Of a stretch of 64,000 nt of DNA, positions 35,105 to 38,205 are shown in pieces (within the stretch, counting starts at the first letter, position 1; each line of letters opens with the position of its first letter). Location: the IMG/VR virus record IMGVR_UViG_2802429064_000003; one strand, given 5' to 3'. Under the pieces are notes generated by a model. The model made no database searches and was not told the origin of the DNA. It was given only the letters and a program-made list of their open reading frames with translations. Position numbers and translations under genes: made by a program. This DNA is from a virus.

Positions 35105-38100
35105 AAGGGCATGTCAAGGCCACCACCGTGCCCGCTCCAAAACTGCGTGTGAGGCCACCAAATCCACTTCGCCAACACCAGATCGACGCCCTCACGGCTG
35201 TGCAGACCGACGTGGCGCGTCAACAGCTCATCATGGCGTGCGGAACAGGGAAGACACTGACCGGCCAGCATGCCGTGGCCAAGCTACTGGGCGAGCAACC
35301 CGGAACAGTCCTGGTTCTGGTTCCGACACTTAGCCTGTTGGAGCAGACGTTCCAGGCATGGGCCGCGTATGCTCCGTTCGGATTCGACTCGATCGCCGTA
35401 TGCTCTAAGTTGACCCCTGCTGAAAAGCGAAGCGTCGGTACAGAGGATGACACTGATACCGGTCAGCTTGCGTTGGCAGCCACAACCGAACCAGCGGAGC
35501 TCGCGGACTTCCTGGCTGGCCAAGAACGGACGACGCGGGTCGTGTTCGGCACCTACCAGTCACTCGACACAGTGATCGCTGCCCATGCCGATCACGGCGC
35601 AGAGCCGTGGAGCGTGGTCGTCTGCGATGAAGCGCATCGCACCGCAGGAGCCAAGGCCAAGCCGTTCGCGCGAGCGCTTCACGATGAGTTCGTGCCGGCG
35701 CGCCGGCGACTGTTCCTGACAGCAACGCCGCGTGTGCATACCGTGTCGGAGAAGGAATCAGGGTCGGAGAAATCCACGTTGCTGGCGTCGATGGATGACG
35801 AAACGCTCTACGGCAAGCAGGTTTATACCCTGTCGGTGGCCGAAGCGATTGAGAAGAACATTCTGTCGCAGTACCGCGTCGCGGTAATCGGTGTAGAGGA
35901 TGCGGAATTACAAGCCGCGGTGCGGACGCTCGAAACGGTGAAGGTAGCAGGAAGCGACCTGTCGCTTGATCACGTCGCATCGATCGTGGCGCTGTCGAAG
36001 GCGGCGCAGCAATACGGACTGCAGGCGATCATCGCCTTTTTCAACAGCATCAAGTCCAGCAAGAGTTTCCGTGACGCCTTCAACACGGTTCACGAAAGTC
36101 GCGTTGGTGAGCACCTTGCCGAAGGGGTTGCCGAACACATCGACGGCGCCATGAAATTAGAGAAACGCCGTGCTGCTCTGACACGGCTAGCGCAGAATCG
36201 CGACAATGGTTTCTACCTCGTATCTAACGCACGGTGCTTGTCTGAGGGTATTGACGTACCGGTTTTGGACGCAGTCTTCTTCGGGGAGCCTCGCAGCAGC
36301 CAGATCGAGGTCGTGCAGTGCGTCGGCCGCGCGATCCGCAAGAACCCCCGTCACGACAATCCGGCGCTGATTGTGATTGGGGTGCGCATCGGGGCCGGTG
36401 AGGACATCGAAGCGGCAGTCGACGAGTCGCAGTTCAAGAAGATTCGACAGGTTATCGCGGCGTTGTCCGACCACGACCCACGCATCGCCGAGGCCGCCCG
36501 CGTTCTGGCCCGAAGCGGAGGATCCAACCCGGACGATTCGGTCCACGAGAAAACCGACTGGGCCAAAGATCTTCTTGCATTGGAGGTCCCGGAGGCACTG
36601 CTGCATAACGGGTTCGGGCTGCGGATGCTGGACGTTAGAAATCGAGACTGGGAGAAGCGGTTCGCGCAAGTTTCTCAACACGCTCAACGTACCGGAAACG
36701 TGATTTTTGCAAATACGGACCCATGCGGCAGCTGGATAAACAAGCAGCGCATGAAATTCCGTGAAGGAAGACTACCAGTGGAACGTAGTAGGCGGCTTGA
36801 GTCCCTGCCTGGATGGAGCTGGGATGTACTTACTGATCAATGGGAGATGCGCTTTGTAGAAGTTTCTCGACGGGCTCAACGTGTTGGAACCGTGGCGTTT
36901 CCACACGGAAGCCCGCAGAGTGCGTGGGTGACCAATCAGCGCAAAGCGTTCAGTGACGGAAGGCTACCAGTGGAACGTAGTAGGCGGCTTGAGTCCCTGC
37001 CTGGATGGAGCTGGGATGTACTTACTGATCAATGGGAGATGCGATTCGCGGAGGCCTCTCAACGCGCTCAACATGTTGGCAACCTGGCAGTTTCGAGAAA
37101 CCAGCCACTAGGTAAATGGATAGCTAATCAGCGTCGGCGTTTCCACACTGGTTCACTTTGTGCTGAACGAATCAAGCGGCTTGAGTCGCTGCCAGGGTGG
37201 AGCTGGGATGTACTTACTGATCGGTGGGAGAAGATGTTTGTGGAGGTTTCTAGACATGCTCACCTCAGGGGCAACGTGACATTTCCAAGCAAAGATCCGC
37301 GAGGTACTTGGGTAACTAAACAGCGCAAATCCTTCCGCGCCGGCACGCTGTCTGCCGAACGCATCAAGCGTCTAGAGGCTCTGGCCGGCTGGAGTTGGGA
37401 TGTGATCTCGGCTCAGTGGGAGAAGATGTTTGTGGAGGTTTCTAGACATGCTCACCTCAGGGGCAACGTGACATTTCCAAGCAAAGATCCTCGGCAGGTG
37501 TGGGTATCCCAGCAGCGGACAACGCACCTCCGTGCGGGCACGTTGTCTCTTGAACGCATCAAGCGGCTTGAGTCGCTGCCCGGGTGGAGTTGGGATGTGA
37601 TCTCGGCTCAGTGGGAGCAGCGGTTTGCGGAGGTTTCTAGACATGCTCACCTCACGGGCAACGTGACATTTCCAAGCAACGATCCTCGGATGCTATGGGT
37701 ATACACGCAGCGGAAGTCTTTTCAGGTCAACAAGCTTTCTGCTGAACGAATTAAGCGGCTTGAGTCGCTGCCCGGGTGGAGTTGGGATGTACTCACCGAT
37801 CAATGGGAGCAGATGTTCGAGGTGATTCACCACCATTCCCGTCTAACCGGGCGGATTGCGTTTGATAGAAGGGACACACGCACGTACTGGATTCAGGTTC
37901 AGCGCCAACGTTTCCGTGCGGGCACCTTGTCTCCTGAACGCATCAAGCGTCTAGAGGCTCTGTCCGGTTGGACCTGGGATGTTCTCGCCGACCAGTGGGA
38001 GCAAAGTTACGCCGAAGTATGTCGTTACGCTGAGCGCACCGGCAACGTGACTTTTCCGGACAGGAACCCCCTGCGAAGCTGGGTAAGTCGGCAGCGCAGA

Positions 38101-38205
38101 GAATTCCATGCGGGCAAACTTTCTCCAGATCGCGTCAAATTACTTGAGTCACTGCCGGGATGGAGCTGGAGTCCCCGCGTGAAGAAGAAAGTGAAAGCCG
38201 CATGA
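35101..38205 (+). CDS. DEAH-box superfamily-2 helicase with a C-terminal array of 8 tandem HA domains
   Basis: GTG in a GTGA overlap with the upstream gene. Walker A ACGTGKTL, motif II VVCDEAHRTAG, a helicase C-terminal domain, then eight 65-aa repeats each ending LESLPGWSWDV. Confidence 0.75.
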   Translation: MKGHVKATTVPAPKLRVRPPNPLRQHQIDALTAVQTDVARQQLIMACGTGKTLTGQHAVAKLLGEQPGTVLVLVPTLSLLEQTFQAWAAYAPFGFDSIAVCSKLTPAEKRSVGTEDDTDTGQLALAATTEPAELADFLAGQERTTRVVFGTYQSLDTVIAAHADHGAEPWSVVVCDEAHRTAGAKAKPFARALHDEFVPARRRLFLTATPRVHTVSEKESGSEKSTLLASMDDETLYGKQVYTLSVAEAIEKNILSQYRVAVIGVEDAELQAAVRTLETVKVAGSDLSLDHVASIVALSKAAQQYGLQAIIAFFNSIKSSKSFRDAFNTVHESRVGEHLAEGVAEHIDGAMKLEKRRAALTRLAQNRDNGFYLVSNARCLSEGIDVPVLDAVFFGEPRSSQIEVVQCVGRAIRKNPRHDNPALIVIGVRIGAGEDIEAAVDESQFKKIRQVIAALSDHDPRIAEAARVLARSGGSNPDDSVHEKTDWAKDLLALEVPEALLHNGFGLRMLDVRNRDWEKRFAQVSQHAQRTGNVIFANTDPCGSWINKQRMKFREGRLPVERSRRLESLPGWSWDVLTDQWEMRFVEVSRRAQRVGTVAFPHGSPQSAWVTNQRKAFSDGRLPVERSRRLESLPGWSWDVLTDQWEMRFAEASQRAQHVGNLAVSRNQPLGKWIANQRRRFHTGSLCAERIKRLESLPGWSWDVLTDRWEKMFVEVSRHAHLRGNVTFPSKDPRGTWVTKQRKSFRAGTLSAERIKRLEALAGWSWDVISAQWEKMFVEVSRHAHLRGNVTFPSKDPRQVWVSQQRTTHLRAGTLSLERIKRLESLPGWSWDVISAQWEQRFAEVSRHAHLTGNVTFPSNDPRMLWVYTQRKSFQVNKLSAERIKRLESLPGWSWDVLTDQWEQMFEVIHHHSRLTGRIAFDRRDTRTYWIQVQRQRFRAGTLSPERIKRLEALSGWTWDVLADQWEQSYAEVCRYAERTGNVTFPDRNPLRSWVSRQRREFHAGKLSPDRVKLLESLPGWSWSPRVKKKVKAA
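36649..38169 (+). repeat. Tandem 195-bp coding repeats (8 units, up to about 85 bp identical between units) encoding HA domains
   Basis: For example 36763-36850 is nearly identical to 36958-37045. Read directly from the sequence. Confidence 0.7.

Follow-up and report, generated by a model that had tools for sequence, protein, structure and literature searches.

We analysed a stretch of 64,000 nt from a virus record of IMG/VR (IMGVR_UViG_2802429064_000003; the whole stretch is referred to here as the window) that is a plasmid-like, integrative element of Mycobacteroides abscessus. Among its genes is one for an SF2 helicase whose C-terminal part consists of eight tandem, in-frame HA domains, designated U1 to U8 (Table 1). 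The units of this array are a mosaic of strongly diverged and perfectly identical stretches, they differ in number between alleles with closely related motors, and they belong to a cassette that is a hotspot of divergence in an otherwise near-identical element. In our judgement, the protein is probably a translocase resembling TtrA of Streptomyces that uses the HA array as a DNA arm, and this array, though old, evolves concertedly.

The helicase begins at GTG 35101, which overlaps the stop codon of an upstream gene for an HA-only protein as GTGA, and not at the ATG at position 34945 of the open reading frame (ORF) list, since homologues and annotated entries begin with MKGHVKATT, that is, at GTG 35101. 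Downstream, an ATGA overlap leads into a gene for a DEDDh-like exonuclease, so that the helicase gene is translationally coupled on both sides. The 1034-aa product is identical to the annotated protein P0121, a putative helicase of M. abscessus found on 24 contigs. Its SF2 motor (aa 1-~470) contains ResIII/DEAD and Helicase_C matches (aa 75-263 and 393-466, respectively, in the numbering of the long ORF), a Walker A motif MACGTGKT and a DEAH box in the form VCDEAHR, and is followed by a helical linker and the HA domains at aa 517-1029. With the Pfam HA profile (PF03457) the protein scored 257.3 bits against a gathering cutoff of 28.4, in eight separate stretches located after the motor domains, which confirmed the preliminary description of this DNA as to the presence of eight HA domains in one helicase gene. 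One database allele, P0001 (928 aa), has lost half of the motor and carries an unrelated N-terminus of 28 residues joined at ADFLAGQERTT.

The motor matched the PADLOC model of Type IIG/ISP enzymes with E = 4e-93, over model positions 167-646 of 1646 only. An AlphaFold2 model of the helicase had a mean predicted local distance difference test score (pLDDT) of 82, and its best Foldseek matches were LlaBIII (E = 1e-29) and LlaGI (1e-20), followed at lower rank by XPB, RadD and Snf2-type translocases of double-stranded DNA. These matches suggest that the motor is an SF2 ATPase translocating on double-stranded DNA. Each HA unit was predicted to form three helices of ~20, 14 and 8 residues, with block-mean pLDDT values of ~74-91 across the array. 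A single-unit profile matched PDB entry 2KTA_A, the sole HA domain of solved structure, with E = 1.5e-4 over 58 residues that include the W...QR...L..R core, and a phmmer search of PDB with the entire array gave no match. The array has a net charge of +35 (+2 to +6 per unit) and the core one of -8. Variation within the unit is greatest in the loop that connects helices 1 and 2 and, around the invariant W...QR, at every second position of helix 2; in that same loop, M. abscessus units lack 6-7 residues compared to the 70-71 aa units of other mycobacteria. Among the 120 best matches, HA number ranged from 2 to 14 units. The HA domains most likely act jointly as an extended DNA-binding arm of the motor.

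At the DNA level, Tandem Repeats Finder and a second repeat finder identified the array, which is the only tandem repeat of its score in the entire window. Its period is 192 bp (64 codons), the unit starts being 192, 192, 192, 192, 195, 192 and 192 bp apart; the 195-bp period given in the preliminary description applies to U5 alone, which carries one additional codon. Unit lengths of 192 and 195 bp are multiples of three, and all variants found were in frame and of full length. A phase-variable contingency locus, switching by frame or promoter spacing, was ruled out, as unit changes preserve the frame. Over the array, GC content falls to 0.565 (36001-38000) from ~0.62 in the surrounding element, and GC content at third codon positions of the helicase gene was below 0.68, the cut-off of a rough ORF filter that most of the window's other large ORFs satisfied.

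The units had been described as near-identical, with up to about 85 bp of perfect identity. Whole units proved to share just 51-85% of their nucleotides and 38-84% of their amino acids. Long perfect tracts do exist, with true lengths of 80 bp (shared by U1/U2 and U2/U3) and 75 bp (U4 and U5). The pair of segments cited for this identity, 36763-36850 and 36958-37045, lies 3 bp off register and matches at 25/88 positions, whereas an offset of 192 (36955-37042) gives 86/88. Identity was distributed as a mosaic. The C-terminal thirds of U1 and U2 match at 100%, their N-terminal thirds at 71% and their middle thirds at 57%. For U4 and U5 it is the N-terminal thirds that are 100% identical, with 67% between the middle thirds. 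Both tracts were non-random (P <= 5e-5), greatly exceeding the length that pairwise divergence permits, when differences were permuted, and also in a stricter permutation in which solely the sites polymorphic among the eight units were shuffled. Synonymous difference between units (pS) averaged 0.57-0.72 across the unit, a nearly saturated level that indicates that most units are old, and the ratio of nonsynonymous to synonymous difference (pN/pS) was 0.2-0.5. Most units are therefore ancient and kept by purifying selection, and the perfect tracts mark recent local homogenisation. Positive selection on the units was dropped as an explanation, crude pN/pS being below 1 throughout the unit.

Unit number and concerted change among alleles

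The preliminary description had proposed that repeat number be compared among related genomes. This comparison showed arrays of 8, 6, 4 and 3-4 units in M. abscessus alleles with core identities of 89.6-92%. The best identity between units of different alleles was 55-73%, none exceeding 73%, and the units have no one-to-one orthology. Instead, 19/22 units found their best match within their own allele (mean identity 60.4% within and 55.6% between alleles), with a tendency of the terminal units to correspond by position across alleles. The arrays have undergone concerted evolution with turnover. Perfect tracts occur in the other alleles too, measuring 117, 112, 108 and 60 bp in the 6-unit element (L001) and 85 bp in the 4-unit element (L007), and they differ in place and sequence from those of the window. 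In all three M. abscessus alleles examined, the longest perfect run was 80-117 bp; period-matched perfect runs of at least 50 bp were found in just 3/80 species-level relatives (median 11.5 bp). Long period-matched perfect tracts were seen in the HA helicases of a Sulfurimicrobium metagenome-assembled genome (MAG; L013, 128 bp), an Anaerolineaceae MAG (L010, 73 bp) and Prochlorococcus (L032, 73 bp), so that HA arrays of unrelated phyla, too, have sporadically been homogenised in recent times.

Changes by a single unit were detected within clusters of 90% identity, as the length pairs 1034/970, 906/842 and 778/714 aa; assembly GCA_001215385.1 has the 970-aa form. The locus encoding the 970-aa form (L005) equals the window minus exactly 192 bp, with a junction that is ambiguous within the 75-bp perfect tract, and its flanks differ from the window by 3 single-nucleotide polymorphisms in 12 kb upstream and by none in 10.5 kb downstream. 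Junctions were mapped at the DNA level in L005 only; for the 906/842 and 778/714 pairs, protein comparison and tract positions placed them in tracts of 117 bp and 85 bp, respectively, of the parent allele. A different type of change was found in L006 (CP062133.1), a chromosome-scale assembly of 5.18 Mb that keeps all eight units: the same synonymous T>C substitution is present in U4 and U5, at 37239 and 37431, and U5 and U6 show a reciprocal R/T swap. These parallel and reciprocal changes are direct evidence of information transfer between units. The one-unit variants with junctions in perfect tracts and the parallel unit changes bear out the earlier proposal that the array is a recombination substrate, and they support an in-frame array that expands and contracts, as far as sequences can tell, by recombination.

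We considered whether the one-unit variants (970, 842 and 714 aa) and a reshuffled allele, P0124, are artefacts of short reads, the array being stable in the short term and only the ancient differences between alleles being real. The 5- and 7-unit forms were seen in draft assemblies only, as indeed were all one-unit variants, and the shorter form was always the rarer one (2 vs 24, 1 vs 3 and 1 vs 6 contigs in the cluster listing). The junctions fall in the longest perfect tract, where collapse of a de Bruijn graph is expected, and loop collapse at a perfect repeat of 75-117 bp would produce identical junctions. Moreover, many proteins of the clusters are truncated where a contig stops within the array (P0125-P0134 among them). 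On the other hand, the 970-aa form is present on two contigs that differ in length, the parallel and reciprocal unit changes of CP062133.1 require real exchange between units, and the difference between alleles of 3, 4, 6 and 8 units is genuine, since the unit sequences themselves differ. On balance we regard this explanation as unlikely, though it keeps an appreciable chance of being correct for the one-unit variants and P0124. In 4/52 distant relatives (L026, L031, L034 and L052) an internal stop or frameshift divides the array into two or three successive ORFs; these could be pseudogenes or assembly errors within the repeats.

A hotspot of divergence around the helicase gene

When the window was aligned with L001, the element with 6 units, the backbone proved mostly 98-100% identical, with a valley at 33.8-38.6 kb, where identity was 82-88% in the HA-only gene, 85-92% in the helicase core, 62-69% in the HA array and ~70% in the 5′ part of the exonuclease gene. 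The gene for an FtsK-type ATPase was locally more divergent too, down to ~80%. Against the 4-unit element L007 the valley had sharper edges, the identities being 100% for the HA-only gene, 88% for the core, 68% for the array, 67-75% for the exonuclease and 96.5% for FtsK. The L006 allele, in turn, contains a 265-bp block dense in differences at the 5′ end of the helicase gene. The edges of the valley are mosaic, as illustrated by the HA-only gene, which is identical to that of L007 but not to that of L001, in a backbone of 96-100% identity overall. Such sharp divergence inside a near-identical element suggests that the helicase-array-exonuclease cassette exists as several old allelic types that have been swapped between related elements. 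The local nature of the divergence would be compatible with selection for diversity, of which the crude pN/pS values are no proof.

A cassette of this kind might be a conflict system for defence, exclusion or incompatibility, composed of a translocase and a DEDDh exonuclease and subject to diversifying selection, with the array as its specificity module and the units setting the DNA that is recognised. Consistent with this idea, the valley is confined to the helicase, its array and the 5′ part of the exonuclease gene (62-92% identity) and has mosaic edges, and the variable columns of the unit concentrate in the loop and on helix 2. The motor also resembles Type ISP restriction enzymes, larger homologues bear N-terminal nuclease domains of the Mrr type (PF13156, PF04471), and a passage of PMC12191111 places HA among the sensor domains fused to defence nucleases. 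However, PADLOC returned no match at the level of a system, a known defence system being rejected because the motor region alone was matched; pN/pS is below 1, conservation of the exonuclease partner does not extend to distant relatives, and the gene order agrees with a plasmid block containing SLT and FtsK/SpoIIIE genes (described below) that we read as a transfer region. We therefore consider a conflict system doubtful, with a modest chance of being right. A bolder form of the idea is that the array is a recombinationally reprogrammable DNA-recognition arm, in which residues of the loop and helix 2 would read DNA, and the order and number of units would target the translocase-exonuclease cassette against rival elements or phages. 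This is a long shot; if it were true, repeat-mediated shuffling would constitute a built-in generator of specificity diversity.

Origin of the perfect tracts and mode of array change

From the identity between units, the preliminary description had concluded that duplication was recent and that the array is a substrate for RecA-dependent expansion or contraction, so that variation in repeat number could modulate binding of nucleic acid or partners. Taken literally, this gives a model in which whole units were duplicated recently and RecA-dependent expansion and contraction tune binding strength. Perfect tracts of 80 and 75 bp and one-unit length variants among near-identical alleles speak for this model. 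The low identity of whole units and their near-saturated synonymous sites are contrary to it, and recent duplication of a whole unit was largely rejected because it would leave 192 bp of identity, whereas we found patches of 75-80 bp beside stretches that are 57-67% identical. Taken as worded, the model has a small chance of being correct.

Perfect patches with such diverged sequence alongside point to gene conversion or unequal exchange rather than whole-unit duplication. The product of a single unequal crossover would be a hybrid unit, whose 3′ part resembles the preceding unit and whose 5′ part resembles the following one. A matrix of identities between thirds of units showed that U2 and U4 do not fit this expectation, and short-tract conversion was preferred for this reason. 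The simplest reading of the alignments is that short-tract gene conversion, or repeated partial exchanges, would account for the tracts. Exchange with the two other HA arrays of the island, those of the HA-only gene and of a second helicase (Table 1), was ruled out, as a direct comparison of the three arrays revealed no DNA tracts in common.

We propose that short conversion or unequal exchange between misaligned units would transfer patches of 60-120 bp between units, and that the resulting perfect tracts would then provide the homology for deletion or duplication of whole 192-bp units, each such event keeping the reading frame. Gain and loss of units could proceed by RecA-mediated unequal recombination, by RecA-independent replication slippage or by single-strand annealing; the latter two would yield the same products as the RecA route. 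In Escherichia coli, deletions between short, close tandem repeats are largely RecA-independent, and mycobacteria also possess a single-strand-annealing pathway. In the long term, turnover of units together with swapping of the cassette may have given rise to alleles of 3 to 8 units that lack unit-by-unit orthology. It is hardly credible that selection at the nucleotide level, acting on an embedded RNA or regulatory element, rather than recombination keeps the tracts identical, given that other units vary freely at synonymous sites of the same columns, that the tracts of other alleles lie elsewhere and have a different sequence, and that a promoter/terminator scan detected one promoter-like site (36178-36207, upstream of the array) and three terminator-like sites, which is not above the level of shuffled sequence.

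Several observations weigh against a TtrA-like translocase with a concertedly evolving DNA arm. In addition to the draft origin and rarity of the shorter one-unit variants and the junctions that graph collapse would imitate, a crude pN/pS below 1 in each part of the HA unit provides no positive evidence for diversifying selection. The window helicase is just 28-33% identical to the HA helicases at the ends of Streptomyces plasmids, and TtrA was likened to it by described architecture. Lastly, no exonuclease or HA-only partner adjoined the HA helicases in 80 loci of other species, so that the operon is lineage-specific and of little help in assigning function; a helicase-exonuclease operon conserved across phyla was dropped from consideration, as there were no exonuclease matches in these loci.

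The mobile element and its relation to known systems

The array, the coupled genes and the other annotated features of the element are listed in Table 1.

Table 1. Features of the window with their positions, strand and supporting matches
Feature	Position	Strand	Remarks
Helicase gene, 1034 aa	35101..38205	+	GTG start; Pfam ResIII, DEAD, Helicase_C, 8 x HA
HA array, 8 in-frame tandem units	36649..38187	+	Tandem Repeats Finder and a repeat finder
U1	36649-36840	+	HA unit
U2	36841-37032	+	HA unit
U3	37033-37224	+	HA unit
U4	37225-37416	+	HA unit
U5	37417-37611	+	HA unit, 195 bp
U6	37612-37803	+	HA unit
U7	37804-37995	+	HA unit
U8	37996-38187	+	HA unit
80-bp perfect tract, copy 1	36772..36851	+	C-terminal third of U1 and initial 11 nt of U2
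80-bp perfect tract, copy 2	36964..37043	+	C-terminal third of U2 and initial 11 nt of U3
75-bp perfect tract, copy 1	37224..37298	+	N-terminal third of U4; junction of 192-bp deletion in 7-unit allele
75-bp perfect tract, copy 2	37416..37490	+	N-terminal third of U5
HA-only gene, 334 aa	34100..35104	+	Four canonical 70-aa HA domains, no helicase core; Pfam HA 198 bits, 4 stretches
DEDDh/RNase_T-like exonuclease, 226 aa	38202..38882	+	Pfam RNase_T; PADLOC DEDDh weak
FtsK/SpoIIIE-type ATPase	39382-41442		Clear
Second SF2 helicase, 1043 aa	42754..45885	+	Four old HA domains, long C-terminal extension; Pfam
FtsK-like protein	50062-51948		Weak, below Pfam cutoff
NAPRTase/NAMPT-like enzyme	10-1635		
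WhiA-like paralogue	12957-13910	-	
WhiA-like paralogue	15810-16841	-	
Third SF2 helicase, 657 aa	16838-18811	-	No HA; adjacent to the WhiA-like paralogues
Family A DNA polymerase (PolA), 931 aa	23068-25863		With 3′-5′ exonuclease domain
Tyrosine integrase	60949-62157		

The element also encodes an SLT transglycosylase and a Band 7 protein. The helicase gene lies in the middle of the element, ~23 kb from the integrase gene, and in CP062133.1 the helicase and its element are located at 3.45 Mb of the chromosome-scale record. The second HA helicase is present in the window, L002, L003 and L005, and is replaced in L001, L006 and L007 by unrelated genes (e.g. methyltransferase-like); it occupies a variable accessory slot of the element. 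The two WhiA-like paralogues with the adjacent third SF2 helicase are unusual cargo for a mobile element, and behind the polymerase gene, related loci have a small ORF of the PPE family. A megablast search of phage and plasmid collections with the 30-45 kb region gave no match, and no near-identical phage or plasmid is thus among those deposited there. A prophage was rejected, as PHROGs gave no structural proteins and the SLT protein matches just the lysozyme-like part of tape-measure proteins. A tRNA scan of the window found no tRNA genes, hence no link to linear plasmids with tRNA arrays or to a tRNA attachment site, and a literature search on this M. abscessus element returned nothing specific.

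The closest parallel in gene order was found on a circular plasmid of 264 kb from Tsukamurella tyrosinosolvens (NZ_LR134455.1; L088, positions 156225-181871). Plasmid and element share the order of large hypothetical proteins, SLT, HA-only protein, HA helicase and, on the opposite strand, FtsK/SpoIIIE; the plasmid has three HA-only genes, and its helicase core is 56.6% identical to ours. ParB and mIHF genes lie near the Tsukamurella block, and PLSDB types the plasmid as non-mobilizable. By analogy, the helicase looks like part of an actinobacterial DNA-transfer block, in parallel to Streptomyces TtrA, and may have a role in transfer or replication of the element.

Despite their abundance, HA domains have hardly been characterised, nor is it clear yet what TtrA-like helicases do. 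The alleles with 3, 4, 6 and 8 units form a natural series on a near-constant motor and backbone in a clinically important species, and could be used to study how HA number and composition, which may affect function, relate to DNA binding and transfer of the element. The array breaks or collapses short-read assemblies, and the annotated lengths of the protein in draft M. abscessus genomes are therefore unreliable.

TtrA is a DEAD-box-like helicase bearing tandem HA domains and necessary for SLP2 to conjugate, and its HA domains may bind DNA (bioRxiv 10.1101/2024.11.13.623437; PMC8743542); for DNA binding by HA, PMC12191111 cites Mills et al. 2013. As in the window, an SF2 helicase with C-terminal tandem HA domains is encoded on mobile or transferable DNA of Actinomycetota, and we found hundreds of homologues on Streptomyces plasmids within 1-3 kb of the ends of the records. 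The two systems differ in several respects. TtrA is subtelomeric on a linear replicon and usually transcribed inward, whereas the window helicase is internal to an integrated element; its units have 64 aa as against ~70 aa in TtrA; and its gene is translationally coupled to those of an HA-only protein and an exonuclease. With the HA domain of Bacteroides vulgatus BVU_0683, the protein of 2KTA, the units of the window share the core residues and, in the model, a three-helix fold.

The Type ISP enzymes LlaGI and LlaBIII, which gave the best profile and structural matches of the motor, contain an Mrr nuclease, a methyltransferase and a target-recognition domain, and the window protein has the HA array in the C-terminal place. 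Searches of the helicase with Pfam and NCBIfam found no nuclease, methyltransferase or target-recognition domain, and it is consequently not a Type ISP enzyme.

Tandem HA domains on an SF2 helicase are a known architecture, seen also in TtrA, and a variable number of HA domains is a trait of the whole family. New here are the patchwork conversion, the allelic series in unit number and the hotspot at the level of a cassette in a mobile element of M. abscessus; the locus itself, though genuine, is a rather ordinary example of a known protein family evolving in concert. In-frame arrays of tandem domains that evolve by unequal recombination or gene conversion are well known, for example from the repeats of bacterial surface proteins. 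The HA array shares with them the homogenisation of interior units within an allele, the variation in copy number among strains and the location of junctions in the longest identical tracts. It differs from them in that the protein is predicted to be cytoplasmic and to act on nucleic acid, and in that patches, not whole units, are homogenised.

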